Source: Nitrososphaerota archaeon (GTDB lineage: Archaea; Thermoproteota; Nitrososphaeria; Nitrososphaerales; UBA57). Taken from it: a DNA stretch of 6,979 nt. Within the stretch, counting starts at the first letter, position 1. Every line of letters begins with the position of its first letter. Location of the stretch: contig JACAFS010000049.1 of assembly GCA_013378385.1 (NCBI GenBank), forward strand, positions 1 through 6,979, written 5' to 3'. The notes under the pieces are model-generated. The model saw only the letters and a list, made by a program, of their open reading frames with translations, did no database searches and was not told the origin of the DNA. The position numbers were made by a program, and so were the translations under genes. This document shows, one piece after another, positions 1 to 6,963 of this stretch.

Positions 1-2124
1 AACATTATTACTTATTTCTGAGTTATTGATTTCAATCGATTCAAATCCATCTTGAATATACATTGCTGAATATGAACCGCAATTATTGCCTGAACAATAT
101 TTTATATCTTTTATAGTTACGTTTTCTAGCAAGAGCTTTGAACCATTCAATATAGTATTTGGTTTTTTGTGATAAATTCCTGCACCACCACCACTTTGGA
201 ACGAAGTAGTTGTATTTGAAATAGTTGTATTGATAATGGATACTTTTGCATTCTCTTGAATATCTCCATTTATATAAACCCCAGTACTAAGATTACCCTG
301 TAGAACACAATCAGATATAACTATATTTGTAGGGTTATCCACATAAATATTTTGTCCTACTAATTTGGAATTCAATATTTTTGCATTTCTTTTGGCAACT
401 ATCCTCCCAATTGTTAATCCAATAACACTACTTTGAATTCCAATAGTTGTATATCCATTTATAATTGTTTTACTGATAGAACTCGTATCGCCAGTTATTA
501 AAAAATTACTCGCATATGCTACTCGTTCCATTTCCTGATTGTTTTCATACGAATAAGTGCCCTCAGCAATTACAATCAAGAGATTAGTATTTTCGTTATA
601 GTAATTATCTGCTTTGGCAATTGTTTTAAATGGTTTATCCGCACTCCCATCTCCTGTAAGATCACTTCCAAATGCTGAAACATACTTTTTAATTCCACTA
701 AACATAGATATTACTTTGGTATCACTATATTCAGAACAATAGTTTTCGCTACAAGCCTTTAATCTGTATTTGTAGTCTCCAAATTCTGTGACTGTATTAT
801 CTGTATAGGAATAACTGGCAACAGGAGTAAGATCTGCAATTGCATTGAACGTACTGGAAGTTCCTATAGCTTTTTCAACAATATATTTTTTCTCAAAAGA
901 ATTATTATCTGTCCATGATAGTTGAGCTGATTGGTCAACTTTATTTACATTGAATACAGTTGGTTTTTGGAGAACAATTTCTAATGTAGCCCAACTTTGA
1001 TCCGACTCATTTATATCCGAAAATGCATGTATTGTATACTCATATTGATTACCATATGAGACTCCATTATCGATAAATGAGTTGGAGGAATTATCAAGGG
1101 TATCTACTTTTTCTTGTGTTCCGCCATAATCTTTTCTTTTGACTACAAAACCTTTTTGATAACTCGTTTGACTTTGCCATTGCAAGGTAATCTGATCTTC
1201 TTTCGTGATTTTTGTCGAAGTAAATAGAGGTTTGAGGAAAACAAGGGTGGTCGATTGGACGATTGATGAAGCAGAGACGGCTTCATCTACTGCAATTCTT
1301 ACCCTGTATGAATATTTACCTAACTTTAATCCCTTATCGATATATTTCAGTGTTTTTTCATCAACTGTGTCAATGAAAGTGAAGTCTCCAGAATCAATAC
1401 TTCTTTCAATAAGATATTTGATTTCTAGTGTGCTTTCATTAACTGCTTCCGTTTTTACCTTTTGTGTTTTTTCAGCATTTTTACTCTCTTTTAATATTGG
1501 GATTAGATGATCTATCTCAATCTTTTCCTCTTCAATTACACTGGCTTTATTATCACCTGATTTTGTGCTCGAATCTATCCTGCTACTTGTGGACCAAATA
1601 TGTTCCCATTTCAGTTCTATGCTTTGATCATCAATTCTTGTTAAAGCCCAAAGGTTTGGAGGAGGCAATACAGTTTCTATGCTTTTTGTGTCTGAGATAG
1701 GTGTAATGACATCATTATAAATTCCTTTTACAGCATAATTATATGCAGCAGTCTCCATTGATACACTTGTATCAATTACTACGTACAACTTACTAGTCAC
1801 ACCACCAGTGGTAGATAATACTGTTGCAAAAGAAACAGTATCTAAAACAGCAGAATCATCTAGAGTCTTTGGTCCAAACCCTTCATTCCTATAAATTATA
1901 AAACCAGTGTAATGAAGTTCCGCCAATGATGGTAGACTAATGGTTTGATCTAACATTGTAATTTCAATCTTAGAAAGATCATACAATTCTATATTCGTAA
2001 TAGTTGGTTTTTGTATATGTTTGGATTGAGCTGGATCAAGAGGATTATCATAATCTCTTTTATCTTCACAAGATAGAAAAATGAGAGCAATAAAAGAAAA
2101 ATAGAATAGAAGCTTATTTGCCAT
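1..2124 (-). CDS. Partial CDS (C-terminus lies beyond window start): predicted lipoprotein with ~4 FN3-like repeats followed by a right-handed parallel beta-helix (pectin-lyase-fold, DUF1565-like N-cap) domain
   Basis: This ORF is not in the supplied track. I translated the minus strand by hand from ATG at 2124..2122 down to base 1 and found 708 sense codons with no stop, exactly in frame with the window edge. The N-terminus MANKLLFYFSFIALIFLSC|EDK is a signal peptide with an L-S-C lipobox (Cys codon 2068..2070). Roughly aa 36-475 (DNA ~700..2019) contain four ~90-110 aa repeats with FN3-like signatures, for example 'IELKWE', 'ITLQWQ...KGFVVKRK...YEYTIHAF' and 'AQLSWTD...KKYIVEKA...YKYRLKA'. 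From aa ~478 (DNA 1..693), 'KKYVSAFGSDLTGDGSADKPFKTIAKA' matches the classic beta-helix N-cap motif. It is followed by short repeats rich in N/G/I/T, such as 'VISDCVLQGN', 'VYINGD', 'IINTTISN' and 'IEINNSEISNN'. The start lies 19 nt downstream of the preceding stop. Confidence 0.85.
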   Translation of the reverse strand, partial: MANKLLFYFSFIALIFLSCEDKRDYDNPLDPAQSKHIQKPTITNIELYDLSKIEITMLDQTISLPSLAELHYTGFIIYRNEGFGPKTLDDSAVLDTVSFATVLSTTGGVTSKLYVVIDTSVSMETAAYNYAVKGIYNDVITPISDTKSIETVLPPPNLWALTRIDDQSIELKWEHIWSTSSRIDSSTKSGDNKASVIEEEKIEIDHLIPILKESKNAEKTQKVKTEAVNESTLEIKYLIERSIDSGDFTFIDTVDEKTLKYIDKGLKLGKYSYRVRIAVDEAVSASSIVQSTTLVFLKPLFTSTKITKEDQITLQWQSQTSYQKGFVVKRKDYGGTQEKVDTLDNSSNSFIDNGVSYGNQYEYTIHAFSDINESDQSWATLEIVLQKPTVFNVNKVDQSAQLSWTDNNSFEKKYIVEKAIGTSSTFNAIADLTPVASYSYTDNTVTEFGDYKYRLKACSENYCSEYSDTKVISMFSGIKKYVSAFGSDLTGDGSADKPFKTIAKADNYYNENTNLLIVIAEGTYSYENNQEMERVAYASNFLITGDTSSISKTIINGYTTIGIQSSVIGLTIGRIVAKRNAKILNSKLVGQNIYVDNPTNIVISDCVLQGNLSTGVYINGDIQENAKVSIINTTISNTTTSFQSGGGAGIYHKKPNTILNGSKLLLENVTIKDIKYCSGNNCGSYSAMYIQDGFESIEINNSEISNNV

Positions 2125-2143
2125 TTGATCTTTAATTGACAAA

Positions 2144-4717
2144 CTAAAACATTTCCTTCACATCCGACTGTTTTACATAGCCTATCGCACCTTGTCCTAA
2201 TGCGACAGTATACCAGCCCTTTCTTGGGATAGATATATTATAAATGGCTGCACCTTTATTTATTCTTGTAAGAAATCCCGACCCAGATGTTGGCATATCA
2301 TATACTTTTATCATTCTCTTTGCTATTACAATCTTTTCAGGTTTTTTATTGATTTTGGTGATTCTTACATTGTTATTAACATATTTATTATTATTTTTAC
2401 TTACATATGCAATCAAACCTTTATGAACAATTATCCAATTATATTGACTTTCACCTAATAGCTGATACTTTATAAAAGGTTTAATATTTCCAACGGAAAC
2501 GCCAAAATTTGGTGAAATTACAGGAATAAGTTTCTTCCGTGTTTGTAAGGATCTCATAGTGATTGCTTTTAATCCTTGTCTGAGTAATTTTGACTTAGAT
2601 ACTTCATCTGCTTCTCGTTCATCGATAACTGCTTTATCATAATAAGCAGTAAATAATTTAAATAAATAAAATGCTGTTGCAGAAGTAGCTGCAACTGCAA
2701 ATGTTGTATATAGCTTCTGTTTTTTATATTCGTCCTGAGCTAATTCTTTATATTTCACAGCATTAGATTGAGTATTGGCATTATTATATAATTGAAAATA
2801 TTCATTACTTTGGTTAATAGCTCCTTGTCGGAAAAAGGCACTTGCAGCTGCAACACCTAAAGTTGTAAAAGTCATGTTTTTAGAAGAACTCAATCTTTGC
2901 TGGAGACTCCCTTTGTAGTCCAGCAATTCAAATTTTAACTCCGTTGACTGACCTTCCTTGACTTTTGAACCTTTATTGGCAGTTAAATAATCCTTATGCC
3001 TTATTTCAACATCGTAATTACCCATCGTTAGTGTTATTACTTTGGGTGCATTCCCTTTAAGCTCGCCATCAATGTAAATCTCAGCATTTTTGGCCTCATC
3101 GGGAGTCACAAACACTGCAATGGAGCCCAACCTCGGAATTGGTTTCAAATCGAGATTAGTATTATCTCCTGCACGCACCATAATCTCTTTTGCATTCGGG
3201 TAATGATTTGCTGCTTCAGATTTAAAAGTATAATTACCGGGTTTGAGTTTTAACTCAAATTTTCCAGTTCCTTTATTTTCATCATCGATAAAAAGAGTAC
3301 CTAAACCAGCATCGACATTGACAACACCAATGTTGGTTGTCATTGGTAGAGTTCTTGTTGTCAACCGTTCATCAGAGATAACAATTTCTTCTGAAATGCT
3401 ATTAAAGTATTCCTTTTTGACTTCTAATAAGTAGGTACCTGAGGCAATCATTAAATTTTCAAAGGGAGTTTTACCCTTCTTTATTCCATCAAGATATACA
3501 TCAGCATCCGTTGTATTCAAGGTAACAACTTGAAACATGCCATATGCTTTATCGAGCTGAATTGTTAATTGATCTGACTTCCCTTCCATTATCTCTATTA
3601 CTCTAGATGTAGAATGGTACAGATTTTTGGTGATATTTATTTCATGCTTACCATCTAATAGTTGATATTGTTTTATTGGTGAAGCACCTAATGGTTTATT
3701 ATCAATTGTTACGTTTGCTTCAGCTGGAACAGTATTGATGGTTACAAAACCAAAACGAGGCTTCAGGGTCTCATTAATTTCTTCGGATTCGCCAACCTCA
3801 AGATTAAACTGCAATGTAGAGGTATGATACATTGCAAGACTCAAATCCATAACATGATTACCAGCAATTAAGGTTCCTGTATATGGTGTTGATCCAATTC
3901 TCTGATTATTGATGAGTATCTCTGCTCCTTGAGGTTTTGTATTAATTGATATCATTCCGGGAGAACGGTATGGGATAATCTCAGAGTCATCTCTCACCAT
4001 TTGGATGGAGTATTGTGCATCCTGACTAACTCGAATCAATTTGGTGACGGTCTTATATTGATTTTTCTCAAATCTAAAAGTATACTCATCTGAAGCAAGT
4101 TTTAATATTGCTATATTTCCAATAGTTTGAAGTGGTGAAAATGAACCATGCGACACATAAGCATTTTCCACATTTATATTGAATTGCAATTGATATAACT
4201 TTTGTGCCTTAACAACGAATACTGGATCATATGTCCCACCTGACATATCTCTTGCTAAATTATTAATAACGGTTGCTAAGATTATTCGAACATCATCTAA
4301 AGAATTCAAACCTCTATCGATGACTACATTGGCGGGCATCTTATTCGTAGTCGTATGTATTACTTTGAAGGTGGCTGTGTATTCTCCAGTGCTACCGATT
4401 TTATTTATAGTGGGTATTAACATATATTCTGCCCCTACCATTTGGCCAACTTCTGCAGCACACTCTATACTTACGCAACTTTGTTGAAATTCTTGTTCTT
4501 TAAGAATATCATCTCGCTCTGCTACACTCACCAGTGAAAAATATTTCACTTTAAGAATTTCTTGCTCTAATCGATCACGGATATTTTCTTGGATTGCAGA
4601 GCTAATATTTTCACCGCCAACATCTGTAACCCCAATCACAATCTTTTCTGCCTGAGGCAATACGGTTGAAATAATCAGTAAAAATGATAGAATTCCTTTA
4701 ATTGAATTATACATCAT
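2144..4717 (-). CDS. Secreted multidomain envelope protein: signal peptide, short CsgG/FlgO/TolB-N-like alpha/beta domain, ~6 PEGA domains, hydrophobic helical hairpin, C-terminal SH3b-like domain(s)
   Basis: 857-aa ORF. The SPase-I type signal is MMYNSIKGILSFLLIISTVLPQA|E. Residues 25-158 (DNA 4244..4645) read 'KIVIGVTDVGGENIS...RDRLEQEI...VAERDDILKEQEFQQSCVSIECAAEVGQMVGAEYMLIPTINKIG..YTATFKVIHTTTNK'. This fits the pattern I-A-V-x-D...ER..L..I..EQ.FQ.S..C....CA.E.G...GA......G.I...G typical of CsgG/FlgO/TolB-N-like lipoprotein domains. Six ~70-aa repeats (DNA ~2918..4204) carry PEGA-type motifs: VENAYV, PQGAEILINNQRIGSTPY, PAEANVTIDNKPLGASPI, TDADVYLDGIKKGKTPF, LFIDDENKGTGKF and NAEIYIDGELKGNAPK. 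Each is followed by G-x-H/Y-x-(I/V/L)...Y. Residues 614-694 (DNA 2636..2878) contain two Ala/Ser/Thr/Phe-rich hydrophobic segments. The C-terminus 'KVYDMPTSGSGFLTRINKGAAIYNISIPRKGWYTVALGQGAIGYVKQSDV' is SH3_3-like (DNA ~2147..2485 including a weaker upstream copy). The start overlaps the upstream stop as ATGA. Confidence 0.9.
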   Translation of the reverse strand: MMYNSIKGILSFLLIISTVLPQAEKIVIGVTDVGGENISSAIQENIRDRLEQEILKVKYFSLVSVAERDDILKEQEFQQSCVSIECAAEVGQMVGAEYMLIPTINKIGSTGEYTATFKVIHTTTNKMPANVVIDRGLNSLDDVRIILATVINNLARDMSGGTYDPVFVVKAQKLYQLQFNINVENAYVSHGSFSPLQTIGNIAILKLASDEYTFRFEKNQYKTVTKLIRVSQDAQYSIQMVRDDSEIIPYRSPGMISINTKPQGAEILINNQRIGSTPYTGTLIAGNHVMDLSLAMYHTSTLQFNLEVGESEEINETLKPRFGFVTINTVPAEANVTIDNKPLGASPIKQYQLLDGKHEINITKNLYHSTSRVIEIMEGKSDQLTIQLDKAYGMFQVVTLNTTDADVYLDGIKKGKTPFENLMIASGTYLLEVKKEYFNSISEEIVISDERLTTRTLPMTTNIGVVNVDAGLGTLFIDDENKGTGKFELKLKPGNYTFKSEAANHYPNAKEIMVRAGDNTNLDLKPIPRLGSIAVFVTPDEAKNAEIYIDGELKGNAPKVITLTMGNYDVEIRHKDYLTANKGSKVKEGQSTELKFELLDYKGSLQQRLSSSKNMTFTTLGVAAASAFFRQGAINQSNEYFQLYNNANTQSNAVKYKELAQDEYKKQKLYTTFAVAATSATAFYLFKLFTAYYDKAVIDEREADEVSKSKLLRQGLKAITMRSLQTRKKLIPVISPNFGVSVGNIKPFIKYQLLGESQYNWIIVHKGLIAYVSKNNNKYVNNNVRITKINKKPEKIVIAKRMIKVYDMPTSGSGFLTRINKGAAIYNISIPRKGWYTVALGQGAIGYVKQSDVKEMF

Positions 4718-6015
4718 ATCTCATCAATCATTTTTTGTACTGTTTTAGAAAGATATTTTTCTGAAATAATTTTTATAGCTTCCTTACCCGCAAGTTCATA
4801 TGAATTGAAATGTGCACCCTTTATTTGGGTAATATTTGTCGACAAGATTTCAAGATTTGTATTATTATCAATAATACTTAGTGCTAAATCAGCAAAGGCA
4901 ACGAAAAAACCATACTCATTTTTCCCCTCAGTGGATTTTGACGTATTAATACTGAGCTTGATCGAATAATCTGTATCACCATCATCTTTAAACGTCATCC
5001 CCAGTTGGGTTGTAAGTAAATCTTTCAATGCTGGAGTGATCATTTCTTCTTCCAGCTTTTTACCAAAAATCTTTTCTTCTGAAATCAGCTTTGCTGTTGC
5101 AGTATTCATTTCTAACTGCAATGTTGAATGTATCGGGTTTTTTATGGCGAGTAATGATGCAGAAGAATCGATCAAGGAGAAAATATCAACTGTAAATGTC
5201 ACATACTGGTTTATAGACTTATCTTTAATCTTAGGCAGAGTATAAAAAGCTTTTCCTTCACCATCTGTAGAGATTTGCTGTAAATCATTATTTTTATTCA
5301 AAGTAACTGCTATAGGTATATTTTTTATTGGCTGTTTTGTAACTCTATCAAAACAAGTGACTTGAATAGGCCTATTATTTTGAAATACTTTAGTTTTTAT
5401 AGAATTAACACTTGGCTCAACAACTACTCTTTTTAAATACGATTCTAAGTTCTCTTTTATAGTCTGATTAAAGCCTATTTTGTCCCGATCAATAAATGGC
5501 TCAATTGTTTTCCATGCATTTCCTAAGCTTACAAATGAGTTAACATCAAATTGTTTTTGTGCACTTTTTAAATAGGATTGTGCCGTATTTAAAACCCCTG
5601 CCATTTCTCTATCTAATCGATCATAGTAGGTCTTTCTTTTAACCTTGCCTAAAAGGTTGAAAGTGTCCTCGTCTTCCCAATCATCATATTCTACATTCGG
5701 TAAGATTGTTTTCTCTACACGTGACTTGATAATGGACTGGCTAAAACGATCAATGTTCTCGTTGTTACCAGTTAGAACATTTATAAGAGATGATTGAACT
5801 TCGACAGAGATTTGAGAGGCTATTTCAATTTCAGCTCGTTGTCGAGCAGTTTTATAGTAATTTTCGGGAAGAGGTTTATAAAGCTGACTTTTCCCGTACC
5901 AATGAAGGTTATCTCTAGGAGTTTTCTCTACCCAACCGGGCTTAGATATACTTCCACTAAAGCAAGAAAAAGAAAAGGTTAAAAGAAATAACCACTTGAG
6001 TGGTTTTAGGTTCAA
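4714..6015 (-). CDS. Multidomain LPP20-like (FlgP-family fold) putative lipoprotein: N-terminal LPP20-like domain, helical linker, Ig-like beta domain, C-terminal alpha/beta domain
   Basis: 433-aa ORF. The start codon on the minus strand is TTG (6015..6013), and the hydrophobic signal begins immediately: MNLKPLKWLFLLTFSFSC|FSGS (non-canonical lipobox). Residues ~24-135 (DNA 5611..5946) read 'KPGWVEKTP...WYGKS...ARQRAEIEIASQISVEVQSSL...VEYDDWEDEDTFNLLGKVKRKTYYDRL', which fits the LPP20 pattern (PxW, aromatic-G, A...A...A.QI.V.V.S, W.D, Y). Residues ~198-300 look like a beta-sandwich ('IPIAVTLN...STDGEGKAFYTLP'). Residues ~305-433 resemble a second small alpha/beta lipoprotein domain ('DYSIKLSIN....FFVAFADLALSIIDNNTNLEILS...GAHFNSYELAGKEAIK'). 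The gene starts 3 nt after the upstream stop and overlaps the downstream start by 4 nt. Confidence 0.82.
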   Translation of the reverse strand: MNLKPLKWLFLLTFSFSCFSGSISKPGWVEKTPRDNLHWYGKSQLYKPLPENYYKTARQRAEIEIASQISVEVQSSLINVLTGNNENIDRFSQSIIKSRVEKTILPNVEYDDWEDEDTFNLLGKVKRKTYYDRLDREMAGVLNTAQSYLKSAQKQFDVNSFVSLGNAWKTIEPFIDRDKIGFNQTIKENLESYLKRVVVEPSVNSIKTKVFQNNRPIQVTCFDRVTKQPIKNIPIAVTLNKNNDLQQISTDGEGKAFYTLPKIKDKSINQYVTFTVDIFSLIDSSASLLAIKNPIHSTLQLEMNTATAKLISEEKIFGKKLEEEMITPALKDLLTTQLGMTFKDDGDTDYSIKLSINTSKSTEGKNEYGFFVAFADLALSIIDNNTNLEILSTNITQIKGAHFNSYELAGKEAIKIISEKYLSKTVQKMIDEI

Positions 6016-6018
6016 AAC

Positions 6019-6588
6019 TCAATCTTTAAGAAAACGACTTTTGGCCTCCAACGCCACATTTCTTGCATCTTCATCCATGGTGGAGAGAGATTGTTCCTCA
6101 GCTGTTTGCCAAGCCCGTTCTCTTGCTGCCTTAATTTCTTTGGTTTCAACGGAATACCACCCATACCAATCATAGGTATCCGTTGACTTGCCAACTGTTT
6201 CCCAGTACGATTCTTCCAGTGTTAAACTAGAAAACTTTGCTTGAGAAAGAGCATTTACTACTGTGGAACCAAATTTTCCTTTTGCACCACCAAGAGTGCC
6301 AACCAGTGAATTATCTAATTCAAGCCGAGCAGAAGTTTGGATTTTCTCTAAAATAGTTTGTATGGCACCAGCATTGGCTTGATTTCGCTTCATATAGTCA
6401 AGATCATTACCATTGAAAACCGCACTCTTAAAATAGAATTTTCCTCTTTTTGTAGCTGTTTCTTCTATAGTCCATTTGGGTTTAGAACCACTAGTTCGGG
6501 CCGGCTTTGAGCCTGCACAGTTATAGATAAAGAAACTTAGGATAATTATTGATAAAAACTTGATTGATCTATGCATTTGGGTCCTCAT
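6019..6588 (-). CDS. Small putative lipoprotein, LPP20-like; alternative and possibly better start at 6576
   Basis: 189-aa ORF. The signal and lipobox are (MRTQ)MHRSIKFLSIIILSFFIYNC|AGSK. The mature part reads 'KPKWT....GKFYFKS...NQANAGAIQTILEKIQTSARLELDN...LEESYWETVGKSTDTYDWYGWYSVETKEIKAA', which has the same motif order as the LPP20-like domain of the next gene (PxW, aromatic core, amphipathic A-rich helix, W/Y-rich strand, K..I). The second in-frame ATG (6576) is preceded by GAGGA (6586..6582) with a 5-nt spacer. The first ATG (6588) has no SD and sits only 9 nt after the candidate -10 box. Confidence 0.78.
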   Translation of the reverse strand: MRTQMHRSIKFLSIIILSFFIYNCAGSKPARTSGSKPKWTIEETATKRGKFYFKSAVFNGNDLDYMKRNQANAGAIQTILEKIQTSARLELDNSLVGTLGGAKGKFGSTVVNALSQAKFSSLTLEESYWETVGKSTDTYDWYGWYSVETKEIKAARERAWQTAEEQSLSTMDEDARNVALEAKSRFLKD

Positions 6589-6597
6589 TTTTTTGAG

Positions 6598-6627
6598 ATT
6601 ATCGAAAATTTAAGATTTAATTCACAA
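6598..6627 (-). promoter_or_regulatory. Candidate sigma70-type promoter for the four-gene operon (TTGTGA-N18-GATAAT), with an A8 tract upstream
   Basis: On the minus strand, TTGTGA (6627..6622) is followed by an 18-nt spacer and GATAAT (6603..6598). An A8 run (6645..6638) lies 11-18 nt upstream of the -35 box, in an UP-element-like position. This is pattern match only, in AT-rich DNA where such hexamers arise by chance. The host's promoter consensus is unknown. Confidence 0.3.
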
Positions 6628-6709: not shown

Positions 6710-6767
6710 TACCCCTATCGTTATATGCGGGAAGTACCCCTGGGCCGTGCCCCTATAAATGCCCCTA
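6710..6767 (-). repeat. Periodic short direct-repeat array: four AGGGG cores (2x TAGGGGCA, 2x AGGGGTA) on the minus strand
   Basis: CCCCT occurs on the plus strand at 6712..6716, 6737..6741, 6750..6754 and 6762..6766. On the minus strand, TAGGGGCA lies at 6767..6760 and 6755..6748 (12-nt period), and AGGGGTA lies at 6741..6735 and 6716..6710. Core spacings are 12, 13 and 25 nt. The array is G/C-rich in otherwise very AT-rich intergenic DNA and abuts the perfect palindrome GTATATATATAC (6701..6712). Confidence 0.5.
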
Positions 6768-6832: not shown

Positions 6833-6871
6833 ATAAAAATAGAAGAGCCCCGTCCTAAAACAGGGCTCTCC
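6833..6871 (-). terminator. Rho-independent terminator downstream of tRNA-Pro
   Basis: The minus strand reads GGAGAGCCCTG-TTTTAGGA-CGGGGCTCTTC followed by TATTTTTAT. This gives a GC-rich stem (7 perfect bp AGAGCCC/GGGCTCT, extendable with G-C and G.U pairs), an 8-nt loop and a T-rich tail. The hairpin begins 17 nt after the tRNA 3' end. Confidence 0.65.
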
Positions 6872-6888
6872 GTCAGACATACATGTTG

Positions 6889-6963
6889 TCGGGGTGAGAG
6901 GATTCGAACCTCCGACCTCCTGCTCCCAAAGCAGGCGCGCTAACCGGGCTACGCTACACCCCG
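6889..6963 (-). tRNA. tRNA-Pro (anticodon UGG), CCA not encoded
   Basis: The minus-strand sequence CGGGGTG-TA-GCGT-AGCCCGGTTA-GCGC-G-CCTGC-TTTGGGA-GCAGG-AGGTC-GGAGG-TTCGAAT-CCTCT-CACCCCG-A folds as a canonical cloverleaf. It has a 7-bp acceptor stem, a 4-bp D stem, and a 5-bp anticodon stem whose loop TT-TGG-GA places TGG at positions 34-36. It also has a 5-nt variable loop, a T arm with the GTTCGAAT motif, and discriminator A. Confidence 0.93.

Follow-up and report, generated by a model that had tools for sequence, protein, structure and literature searches.

The locus examined here, a stretch of 6,979 nt referred to as the window throughout, raises the question of what four neighbouring genes for exported proteins, named A, B, C and D, may build together in the cell envelope. 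The four genes are co-directional, all on the minus strand, and lie downstream of a tRNA-Pro gene and its terminator (Table 1). Their junctions are exactly as first described in the earlier note, with 3 nt between A and B (TGA-GTT-TTG), a 4-nt overlap of B and C (ATGA) and 19 nt between C and D, and the terminator placed upstream of the operon corresponds to a hairpin with a 13-bp stem at 6871-6842. The promoter candidate proposed 5′ of gene A was not upheld: at 6627-6598 the match is a weak one (9/12) and, since such matches are no commoner in the window than in shuffled sequence (24 versus 29.7 expected), it provides no evidence of a promoter. Co-transcription of A to D is suggested by the spacing only. 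In the leader of gene A, the TAGGGGYA repeats possibly have a regulatory role; the four matches to this motif in the window compare with 0.24 expected, and four were reached in 0 of 200 shuffles. An Rfam search of the window returned the tRNA only.

That A to D are real genes is indicated by the presence of the same operon in independent assemblies (L001-L003), by a relative (L004) that carries A-B-C with amino-acid identities of 83% (A), 80% (B) and 56% (C), and by a dN/dS of about 0.2 for B; C is diverging faster than B, as an adaptor might. The gene callers start gene A at its second ATG (6576), which has GAGGA in front of it and would give a product of 185 aa. All four products (4/4) begin with a hydrophobic segment, and a lipobox cysteine is found in A (IYNC, Cys24), B (SFSC, Cys18) and D (FLSC, Cys19), in agreement with the signal peptides and the three lipoboxes previously claimed; A, B and D are thus predicted lipoproteins, and C a predicted secreted protein that is not one.

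Table 1. Features of the window (positions in the window; all on the minus strand)
Feature	Position	Strand	Evidence or remark
tRNA-Pro, anticodon TGG	6888..6963	-	ARAGORN; Rfam tRNA, 67.9 bits; upstream neighbour, outside the module
Intrinsic-terminator-like hairpin, 13-bp stem and T-run	6842..6871	-	3′ of tRNA-Pro; sets the tRNA apart from the operon
TAGGGGYA, three copies within 58 nt, leader 5′ of gene A	6710..6767	-	Motif scan
Gene A, small lipoprotein, 189 aa, lipobox IYNC, KPKW motif	6019..6588	-	ORF and N-terminal analysis
Gene B, 433-aa lipoprotein, TTG start, Cys18	4714..6015	-	ORF; family profile; AF2 model
B, LPP20 domain	~5617-5946	-	Family profile, AF2/Foldseek
B, helical hairpins	~5428-5616	-	AF2 model
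B, Ig-like domain	~5107-5427	-	AF2/Foldseek
B, C-terminal α/β domain, LptE/PelC/PqiC/CsgG class	~4720-5097	-	AF2/Foldseek
Gene C, 857-aa secreted protein, no lipobox	2144..4717	-	ORF; Pfam
C, signal peptide ending ...LPQ	~4652-4717	-	N-terminal analysis
C, CsgG/LpoB-type N-domain with Cys81/Cys86	~4238-4645	-	Pfam
C, PEGA β-sandwiches, one degenerate and five	~2918-4225	-	Pfam
C, Gly/Ala-rich helical hairpin	~2618-2905	-	Conserved in orthologs
C, SH3b-like tail	~2147-2500	-	SH3_3, window and ortholog
Gene D, lipoprotein, at least 708 aa, 3′ end outside the window	1..2124	-	ORF
D, lipobox FLSC, then acidic stretch EDKRDYDNPLDP	~1975-2124	-	N-terminal alignment
D, FN3-like repeats	~715-2007	-	Pfam fn3, sub-threshold
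D, right-handed β-helix (DUF1565-like)	1-714	-	BLASTP to annotated relatives

Two LPP20-like lipoproteins had been proposed, and the proposal stands for B and is weak for A. Window B alone scores 15.9 bits against Pfam LPP20 (PF02169), below the cut-off of 25.9, and the membership becomes clear at the family level, where 103 of 108 sampled members match Pfam LPP20 (best E 2.3e-15) and the family profile finds HP1454, a solved LPP20-family protein (PDB 4kzs), with an E of 6e-8. Word-indexed protein searches returned near-identical matches only and made A and B look like orphans, a genome-collection scan with B as a single protein returned nothing, and none of A, B and D has a family in NCBIfam; the orphan status of B was overturned by an exhaustive profile search, which gathered 501 cluster representatives. 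Cys18 is invariant in the close-family alignment, the 108-sequence alignment being too divergent for pattern scanning. The AF2 model of B reached a pLDDT of 92.2 and a pTM of 0.81 (a pLDDT of 34 was obtained from a two-sequence alignment), and its Foldseek matches in the PDB include Cj1090c/LptE, HpaA, CsgG, PelC, PqiC, DUF4136, intimin D00 and HP1454, the C-terminal domain also matching the CsgG pre-pore structure 4uv2. These matches of a predicted fold are indicative of outer-membrane lipoproteins that form rings or plugs, the LptE/PelC/PqiC class (PMC13631591); in transport systems that span the envelope, proteins of this class serve as the plug or ring at the outer-membrane end. The C-terminal α/β domain of B gives the structural matches that define this class; B differs in the added LPP20, helical and Ig-like domains and in that no LptD, PelB or MCE partner is found nearby.

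For gene A, the hhalign comparison with the B family (91%, E 1e-6, over a stretch that takes in the signal peptide), that with the small-lipoprotein family c28, itself LPP20-like (50.6%), and BLASTP against B (E 0.006) weakly support its placement as a divergent small LPP20-like lipoprotein. No Pfam match was obtained at E up to 1, nor any in NCBIfam, and a plain profile search with the LPP20 domain of B missed A as well as the ORF located upstream in L028; hhalign of A with the single L028 sequence was uninformative, as were PDB sequence searches with A, C and D.

The N-domain of C had been described as CsgG/FlgO-like, and the first half of this description is the one that held: Pfam LpoB matches above its cut-off (24.7 versus 22.3 bits in the window, 36 bits in the orthologs L037 and L038), and Pfam CsgG passes its cut-off both in proteins orthologous to C and in those that partner B, but FlgO (PF17680) gave no match at E up to 1. 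The PEGA repeats previously noticed are evident, with five stretches matching PF08308 (E 1.8e-45) and, upstream of them, a degenerate copy detected as CarbopepD_reg_2 (residues 202-244). The SH3b-like domain is sub-threshold in the window (SH3_3, PF08239, E 0.06, 14 bits versus a cut-off of 27) but significant at the equivalent position of the ortholog L038 (E 7e-12, 45.8 bits), with which the window tail aligns weakly (E 0.001). The orthologs, 37% identical, share the whole architecture, including a significant SH3_3. The only cysteines of C, at positions 81 and 86, form a pair that is invariant in the PEGA subgroup, and the helices of the hairpin are of marginal hydrophobicity (maximum Kyte-Doolittle 1.2-1.5). 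A metagenome scan with C as a single protein found nothing; the C-type domain was confirmed in 346 metagenome loci. The N-domain shares with CsgG and HfaB the α/β core and the motif ILKEQxFQxSG...EIGxxLGA. It comprises about 135 aa, ending near residue 160, with PEGA starting near residue 165, which leaves no room for two transmembrane hairpins; judged from this length only, C would not be a pore of the CsgG type.

Gene D was said to combine FN3 and β-helix domains, and both assignments depend on relatives. Window D scores 18-20 bits with fn3 (PF00041), under the cut-off of 25, whereas a D-like protein of L037 reaches 39 bits. The C-terminal part has no Pfam match at E up to 10, but BLASTP relates the β-helix part to a giant Beta_helix protein of L005 (27% identity, E 5e-7), whose orthologs in L006 and L007 carry Pfam Beta_helix, and to the DUF1565-annotated region of an L039 protein (36% identity, E 6.6e-10). 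When the N-terminus of D is aligned with those of five other NPxD lipoproteins, Cys, Asn, Pro and Asp are invariant; relatives of the D type share only this post-cysteine NPxD segment, the rest of the protein being FN3, cohesin, Kre9-Ig or β-helix from case to case. The lipidated cysteine is followed at positions +2 to +6 by acidic residues in D (C-E-D-K-R-D), while none stands there in A (C-A-G-S-K-P) or B (C-F-S-G-S-I). The lipoprotein export signal of Bacteroidota has been defined as C-X-K-(D/E)2, SDDDD or SDDFE (PMC5080379). The acidic residues of D, and of relatives such as those with C-E-D-T, fit this signal, a rule established in Bacteroidota and not in this lineage. D-type proteins differ from the lipoproteins exported in Bacteroidota in the invariant NPxD located 5-20 residues after the cysteine and in that the latter lack a dedicated neighbouring gene set; the host here is not strictly a member of Bacteroidota.

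The synteny on which the first reading was made to depend exists in many related genomes. Among the informative loci of Neomarinimicrobiota (Marinisomatota) and Calditrichota, 17 of 19 have a CsgG/LpoB-like gene no more than two genes away from B, and the stop and start codons frequently overlap. Of 58 C-like genes, 18 have an NPxD lipoprotein gene as their immediate downstream neighbour, as do 6 of the 9 with PEGA; among background ORFs the lipoprotein pattern is met at about 2% (24 of 1101). Sixteen of these 18 pairs are separated by -19 to 0 nt. Both adjacencies, B/C and C/D, recur in two phyla and in numerous lineages from metagenomes, at rates that clearly exceed the background. L037 contains two tandem C-NPxD pairs, L045 has in a row the genes for a B-like protein, a small LPP20 protein, a thioredoxin-like protein, a C-like protein, an NPxD lipoprotein and a β-helix protein, and in L057 a natural fusion unites a C-type N-domain and the A-type LPP20 domain of c28 (LPP20-like by hhalign, 97.5%). 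The four-part set is not universal, since the partner of B in Neomarinimicrobiota often lacks PEGA and the cysteine pair and is not followed by an NPxD lipoprotein. In most relatives a thioredoxin-like gene, joined in Neomarinimicrobiota by DsbD, lies immediately upstream as part of the module; neither gene is present in the window. This thioredoxin-like gene, the C-D pairing defined by NPxD and the exclusion of C as a CsgG-type pore go beyond the first reading. As anticipated, the module does not sit inside a flagellar or curli locus: neither context was met in about 100 fetched related loci, flagellar Pfam families were found neither in the window nor in up to 10 kb of sequence flanking the annotated related loci, and these loci and the window contain no CsgA/B/E/F-like genes. 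The combination was also said not to be a characterised system, and the literature on LPP20 with CsgG, PEGA, CsgG-like lipoproteins and Marinimicrobia lipoproteins yielded no description of it.

The reading we tentatively favour, to which we give slightly less than an even chance, is that A to D are a single operon whose products make up a non-flagellar complex of the cell envelope, an outer-membrane-tethered scaffold that holds a cognate lipoprotein, the host being a marine, uncultured member of the FCB-group bacteria with affinity to Marinisomatota. A and B, whose post-cysteine sequences lack acidic residues, would be lodged in the outer membrane, on the side of its inner leaflet. The LPP20 domains of both and the LptE/PelC-like domain of B would oligomerise and bind the N-domain of C, much as FlgP, a lipoprotein of the LPP20 family, binds FlgO in the flagellar H-ring of Vibrio. 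From its five to six PEGA β-sandwiches, C would make a rigid periplasmic stalk, tied to a membrane and to peptidoglycan by the helical hairpin and the SH3b tail. The platform of A, B and C would hold, position or help to deliver D, which probably exposes its FN3 stalk and β-helix head at the surface for polymer binding or degradation, given that its acidic N-terminus resembles the surface-export signal of Bacteroidota. The analogy with FlgP and FlgO, which in V. cholerae form concentric, contacting 58-fold outer-membrane lipoprotein rings (bioRxiv 10.64898/2025.12.02.691832), is our best guess. In both cases, an LPP20-family outer-membrane lipoprotein and a small α/β-domain protein are encoded side by side, and a weak precomputed Pfam FlgO match exists for the CsgG-like protein that partners a remote homolog of B. 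Unlike the H-ring, the module has no FlgT or flagellar genes, and C is no lipoprotein; B and C are far larger and multidomain, and a cognate NPxD lipoprotein is added. The absence of a flagellar context rules out a flagellar accessory set. The Lpp20 operon of Helicobacter pylori (HP1454, HP1456/Lpp20, HP1457) likewise clusters several exported proteins of the LPP20 fold; the similarity is limited to the LPP20 domain, and we know of no CsgG/LpoB-PEGA protein or NPxD lipoprotein in that operon. Several observations count against the scaffold model: the thioredoxin-like gene and the DsbD of relatives are left unexplained, the LPP20 character of A is weak, C does not match FlgO, and its hairpin is barely hydrophobic. 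A more ambitious formulation, which we consider unlikely, is that A to C, usually with a thioredoxin-like protein, constitute an unrecognised pathway of the marine FCB group for delivering or anchoring NPxD lipoproteins at the cell surface, each CsgG/LpoB-domain protein being the adaptor for the next lipoprotein downstream and the LPP20 lipoproteins a shared platform.

Much of the same evidence may be read differently. A to C could be a dedicated device that exports or flips NPxD lipoproteins across the outer membrane, with C as the NPxD adaptor of each lipoprotein. The tight and often translationally coupled C-D pairing, the sharing of a single B and a thioredoxin-like gene by the two cognate pairs of L037, the restriction of D-type conservation to the NPxD segment, the membership of the C-terminal domain of B in a class of envelope-transport lipoproteins and the signal-like acidity of D all favour this explanation. 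Nevertheless, the window has no gene for an outer-membrane β-barrel or an energy source, C is devoid of the CsgG pore hairpins, just 31% of C-like genes have an NPxD neighbour, and Bacteroidota export thousands of signal-bearing lipoproteins with no per-cargo adaptor known, so that we hold it to be improbable, if worth keeping in view. If C and its relatives were instead CsgG-type secretion channels, for curli-like or other unfolded substrates, the Pfam CsgG matches of C orthologs and B partners would be accounted for; this is a very remote prospect, as these matches span only about 32-103 of the 210 model positions, the short N-domain cannot house the hairpins, and C, in contrast to CsgG (which works with CsgE/CsgF) and HfaB, lacks a lipidation site, with no genes for amyloid subunits or CsgE/F in the window or its relatives. 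A curli system is ruled out by the missing pore hairpins and subunits, and no genes resembling those of the Caulobacter HfaB system were noticed, by general annotation rather than with dedicated profiles.

A role in regulating or scaffolding peptidoglycan synthesis or remodelling, with C as an LpoB-like PBP activator that would extend from the outer-membrane side to an enzyme of the cell wall and its SH3b domain on peptidoglycan, is suggested by the LpoB match, by the SH3b tail and, for distant pairs of B and CsgG-like genes, by an adjoining MltC-like lytic transglycosylase (L029), a PBP transpeptidase with FHA proteins (L031) and a Mur-ligase-like gene (L014). LpoB and C both span the periplasm, but the match reflects a fold common to CsgG, DUF3280 and TolB_N, and LpoB, a lipoprotein, possesses a long disordered linker, whereas the N-domain of C directly follows the signal peptide and is succeeded by a rigid, folded PEGA array, the hairpin and SH3b. 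C, not being a lipoprotein, is no true LpoB; no link to PBP1B was seen, the UB2H domain of PBP1B that partners LpoB is, to our knowledge, restricted to Gammaproteobacteria, and the conserved NPxD lipoprotein would be left unexplained. All this makes such a role improbable. Modification or export of an exopolysaccharide, D being a β-helical lyase or epimerase like AlgG or pectate lyase and A to C a funnel of the PelC/PelB or AlgK/AlgE kind close to the outer membrane, would agree with the PelC match of B, with TPR repeats in some partners of B (L028, L029), as in PelB and AlgK, and with the recurrence of β-helix/DUF1565 proteins beside C-like genes; it is a little less likely still, because none of the fetched loci contains a glycosyltransferase, synthase, porin or Wza-like gene and the D-type partner often has no β-helix (cohesin, Kre9-Ig or FN3 only). 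Finally, A to D might be mere neighbours with no common function, as the variable gene content of related loci could suggest; the overlapping or abutting stop and start codons, the recurrent B/C and C/D adjacencies and the domain fusion of L057 disfavour this explanation, which appears highly improbable.

In summary, the preferred scaffold reading concerns organisms whose ways of building and decorating their surface are hardly described. These are Marinisomatota (SAR406) and kindred FCB lineages, bacteria that abound in the ocean, are uncultured and are presumed to subsist on particles and polymers. In these lineages the module recurs, as judged from the metagenome loci with the C-type domain and the roughly 500 clusters of the B family, and it joins domain types of flagellar rings, curli and the export of lipopolysaccharide or polysaccharide to large lipoproteins of the FN3, cohesin or β-helix kind. 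Were it a machine for display or anchoring, it would represent a new envelope system and would bear on how the FCB group places lipoproteins and large adhesin- or enzyme-like proteins at the surface; even as a structural scaffold only, it would be a case of a FlgP/FlgO-type pairing used outside flagella.

Every feature of interest in the AT-rich window (~30-40% G+C) lies on the minus strand. The earlier note had described three junctions between the four genes (TGA-GTT-TTG, an ATGA overlap and 19 nt), all of which are exactly matched, and its picture of exported products also holds: a hydrophobic signal segment is found at the N-terminus of 4/4 proteins, with a lipobox cysteine, as claimed, in A (IYNC), B (SFSC) and D (FLSC); C has none, its signal peptide ending in ...LPQ. 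The start of A is more likely the second ATG (6576; 185 aa), chosen by the gene callers and preceded by GAGGA at a distance of five bases, than 6588, where the longest ORF begins. The promoter-like site proposed upstream of A does match the consensus, but the match is weak and not enriched over shuffled sequence, and for this reason it is not counted as evidence. In the leader between the tRNA terminator and A, TAGGGGYA occurs three times within 58 nt (6710-6767, minus strand); the four copies in the window (0.24 expected; four reached in 0/200 shuffles) may be candidate regulator binding sites.

Features of the operon and parts of protein B
Feature	Position	Strand	Remarks
tRNA-Pro(TGG)	6963-6888	minus	upstream of operon
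strong terminator-like hairpin	6871-6842	minus	3' of tRNA-Pro(TGG)
leader	between terminator-like hairpin and gene A	minus	~250 nt
gene A	6588-6019	minus	189 aa
gene B	6015-4714	minus	433 aa, TTG start
gene C	4717-2144	minus	857 aa
gene D	2124-1	minus	708 aa, runs off window
B LPP20 domain	residues ~24-133		AlphaFold2 model
B helical hairpins	residues 134-196		AlphaFold2 model
B Ig-like β-sandwich	residues 197-303		AlphaFold2 model
B C-terminal α/β domain	residues 307-432		AlphaFold2 model

By sequence comparison, the genes of the operon are real and under selection; the same operon is present in three other assemblies, the relative L004 carries A-B-C, and dN/dS of B is ~0.2. Identity between window and L004 is 83% for A, 80% for B and only 56% for C (2144-4717 vs L004:1851-4028); on this comparison, the scaffold protein C is evolving much faster than the lipoproteins A and B.

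Word-indexed searches with B returned only two relatives, both near-identical; an exhaustive profile search recovered 501 cluster representatives at E ≤ 0.001 (192 at E ≤ 1e-10), mostly full-length lipoproteins of 430-470 aa. Of the two LPP20-like lipoproteins that had been proposed, B is borne out, with Pfam LPP20 matched by 103/108 sampled family members, and the family profile also matches the solved H. pylori LPP20-family protein HP1454 (E 6e-8). Public annotation names family members only as "LPP20 family lipoprotein" or "hypothetical protein", NCBIfam holds no model for the family, and the annotated members come from Marinimicrobia/Neomarinimicrobiota and Calditrichota MAGs. The AlphaFold2 model of B, built from a deep alignment, is confident (pLDDT 92.2, pTM 0.81) and has four parts. 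In Foldseek searches against the PDB, the Ig-like part matches intimin D00-D0, and the C-terminal domain matches Cj1090c/LptE, HpaA, the CsgG pre-pore, PelC, PqiC, DUF330 and DUF4136, exactly the set grouped as outer-membrane lipoproteins that have one α/β core in common and serve envelope transport systems at their outer-membrane end (PMC13631591). Two proteins of ~370-390 aa encoded upstream of thioredoxin and C-like genes (L088:2413-3519, L086:262-1437) read by eye as LPP20-like at the N-terminus; one of their domains is matched by both the C-type N-domain and the B C-terminal-domain profiles, which suggests that these two α/β domains are distant homologs.

For A, the other proposed LPP20-like lipoprotein, the claim is left with a weak similarity: A has no match in Pfam or NCBIfam and only close relatives, and its resemblance to the N-terminus of B is weak (BLASTP E 0.006; hhalign 91% at E 1e-6, with the hhalign alignment lying partly over the signal peptide). 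The c28 family of small lipoproteins from related loci (~173-203 aa) aligns with the B family (hhalign 97.5%, E 5.6e-12), matches Pfam LPP20 weakly in 4/5 members, and is clearly LPP20-like in sequence. The match of A to c28 is modest (hhalign 50.6%), and the two have in common their size, a "P-x-W" motif and an xxNC lipobox, itself unusual, with G-S/N-K-(G)-P after it; with moderate confidence, A is a divergent member of the c28 kind of LPP20-like lipoproteins.

The PEGA repeats predicted for C are five in number (Pfam, E 1.8e-45), with a sixth, degenerate β-sandwich ahead of them. The N-terminus matches Pfam LpoB above the curated cut-off, and in orthologs with 36-37.5% identity over ~680 residues (L036, L037, L038), a Pfam scan of L037 and L038 also gave CsgG above cut-off; the N-domain is predicted to have the shared CsgG/LpoB/DUF3280/TolB_N-type fold. 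The glutamine at the signal-peptide end, nearly invariant among C-type proteins, fits the "Q-rule", a known feature of Bacteroidota signal-peptidase-I substrates. All C orthologs continue after the PEGA domains with two Gly/Ala-rich helices of only marginal hydrophobicity that form a hairpin (residues ~605-700 in window C), at which those of L036 and L037 stop; that of L038 and window C add SH3b-like domains. The SH3b claim for the tail is sub-threshold in the window itself (SH3_3, E 0.06), but significant in the L038 ortholog (C-terminal SH3_3, E 7e-12). Among other proteins with PEGA, P0004 (L011:368-3619) combines CsgG/LpoB and PEGA with a Fib_succ_major/Lcl_C-type C-terminal domain, and may be a target of a diversity-generating retroelement, since the next gene encodes bAvd, an accessory variability determinant. 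In P0006, P0008 and P0009, on contigs of 0.46-3.4 Mb, PEGA repeats are combined with an FGE-sulfatase domain, whose fold is also that of PorK/GldK, lipoproteins of type IX secretion and gliding, and in L057:1392-2717 a C-type N-domain is fused to a region that reads by eye like an FGE-sulfatase domain.

The mature N-terminus of D is acidic and contains NPLDP (C-EDKRDYDNPLDP...), and the FN3 domains claimed for the protein appear after it as weak matches (18-20 bits against a cut-off of 25). From ~residue 470 the proposed β-helix finds no Pfam match; its support is alignment to β-helix proteins encoded beside C-like genes elsewhere, namely the giant protein of L005 (27% identity, E 5e-7), whose L006/L007 orthologs carry Pfam Beta_helix, and the DUF1565 region of an L039 protein (36% identity over ~100 residues, E 6.6e-10).

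A pattern scan for B in one genome per species gave 16 loci, the named organisms being all Candidatus Neomarinimicrobiota or Marinimicrobia MAGs. By clustering and Pfam scans, the order pyrF, phosphoribosyltransferase, cyclophilin, patatin, DsbD and thioredoxin-like protein is conserved upstream of the B family; downstream lies a CsgG/LpoB-like protein in one of two forms, CsgG-like (~490 aa) or LpoB/CsgG-plus-PEGA, sometimes with an Ig-like protein in between. Among distant B homologs, P0013 (33% identical) has a c28-type small protein ahead of it and an overlapping TPR-CsgG protein behind it; P0044 has a CsgG-TPR-SH3 protein and small LPP20-like lipoproteins before it and an MltC-like transglycosylase after it; P0150 (Calditrichota MAG) has a CsgG/FlgO-like gene, a c28 member and other conserved genes opposite. 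Synteny, which the earlier note had asked about for all four genes, is seen here for B, a CsgG/LpoB-like gene lying within two genes of it in 17/19 informative loci, and several loci show overlapping stop and start codons, as in the ATGA of the window. The Neomarinimicrobiota partners (L014:11308-12801, L022:8121-9617, L020:2729-4357, L025:10478-12145, L026:11011-12201) have C-terminal regions of alternating hydrophobic residues with an aromatic at or near the end (...FSFSF, ...FTFE, ...LLTF), which look like an outer-membrane β-barrel signal; window C has the helical hairpin in its place.

Scanning metagenomes with the C-type N-domain gave 346 confirmed loci, 80 of which were kept and annotated with our own profiles. 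An NPxD lipoprotein gene (C-x(1-22)-NPx[D/E]) lies immediately downstream in 18/58 C-like genes having downstream sequence and in 6/9 PEGA-bearing ones, with a gap of -19 to 0 nt in 16/18 pairs; the background for the motif is 24/1101 ORFs over all loci, the pair hits themselves included. That the genes of the module are neighbours by pure coincidence is unlikely. These lipoproteins are conserved at the N-terminus only, with Cys, Asn, Pro and Asp invariant, and their bodies vary (FN3, cohesin or Kre9-type Ig domains); a DUF1565/Beta_helix protein often comes next, one with a type IX secretion tail. In L045 all the parts follow one another (B-like, c28, thioredoxin-like, C-like, NPxD lipoprotein, β-helix), and L037:991-7540 has one B-like and one thioredoxin-like gene, then two tandem C-like/NPxD lipoprotein pairs, one lipoprotein of the Kre9-Ig and one of the FN3 type, an arrangement suggestive of a common platform with a separate adaptor for each cargo. 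A single ORF, L057:4500-5714 (+), joins a signal peptide, a C-type CsgG/LpoB N-domain (E 1.5e-46) and, across a Pro/Gln-rich linker, a c28-type LPP20 domain (E 5.5e-19); by the Rosetta-stone argument, this fusion points to the two domain types working together. Cohesin domains in some NPxD lipoproteins (L045:4331-5125, E 6e-12; L039:1117-1650, weak) and weak dockerin matches near the P0005 locus (L005:415-2277 and 8789-9442) are hints of a cohesin-dockerin type surface assembly in Marinisomatota-like bacteria.

Most related loci have a thioredoxin-like gene (AhpC/TSA, TlpA-type) immediately ahead of the B-like or C-like gene (L012-L027, where the c1 and c2 genes precede B-like genes; L005-L010; L033, L034, L037, L045, L049, L055, L073, L076, L080, L083, L086, L088, L090, L094, L095, L098); at least 16 loci show this for the C-like gene, and in Neomarinimicrobiota DsbD precedes the thioredoxin-like gene. 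The motif ILKEQxFQxSGCxxxxCAxEIGxxLGA is common to all C-type N-domains, and its CxxxxC pair is invariant in the PEGA-bearing subgroup (C81, C86 in the window). Together, the upstream gene and the cysteine pair suggest that a redox step in the periplasm is dedicated to the module; in the window the pair is present and the thioredoxin gene is absent, and B partners without the pair still have that gene upstream.

Mechanistically, the Vibrio H-ring comes closest as a precedent: FlgP, an LPP20-family lipoprotein, and FlgO, also a lipoprotein, make up concentric 58-fold rings that touch each other and are anchored in the outer membrane (bioRxiv 10.64898/2025.12.02.691832). A and B would form an outer-membrane-anchored platform binding the N-domain of C, the PEGA array would serve as a stalk across the periplasm, held in place by the hairpin and SH3b tail, and the platform would hold or deliver the cognate lipoprotein D. 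The acidic post-Cys sequence of D agrees with the lipoprotein export signal of Bacteroidota (C-X-K-(D/E)2, SDDDD, SDDFE; PMC5080379), and A and B have no acidic residues after the lipidated Cys; D therefore probably lies exposed on the cell surface, with A and B facing the periplasm. The genes are linked, and we infer each step beyond that linkage.

The module may instead be a dedicated lipoprotein exporter, working on D and its like. It may also regulate a peptidoglycan enzyme; C is ruled out as an LpoB-type lipoprotein because it is not lipidated. A CsgG-type pore is unlikely, since the CsgG matches of C-type proteins span only ~model positions 32-103 of 210 and the N-domain has just ~135 residues and, again, no lipid. 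A polysaccharide module may be considered as well; no polysaccharide-synthesis, flagellar or curli genes occur in any annotated related locus, and the flagellar or curli context against which the earlier note had warned was not encountered. The module does not qualify as a flagellar H-ring, curli or LpoB system. It is built of known domain families throughout, and its likely logic has precedents in the lipoprotein rings and scaffolds found beneath the outer membrane; as the earlier note had not recognised the combination as a characterised system, so the literature search found no description of it. Its hosts are not tractable; the module is widely recurrent in abundant uncultured marine lineages and carries a testable cargo-adaptor signature.
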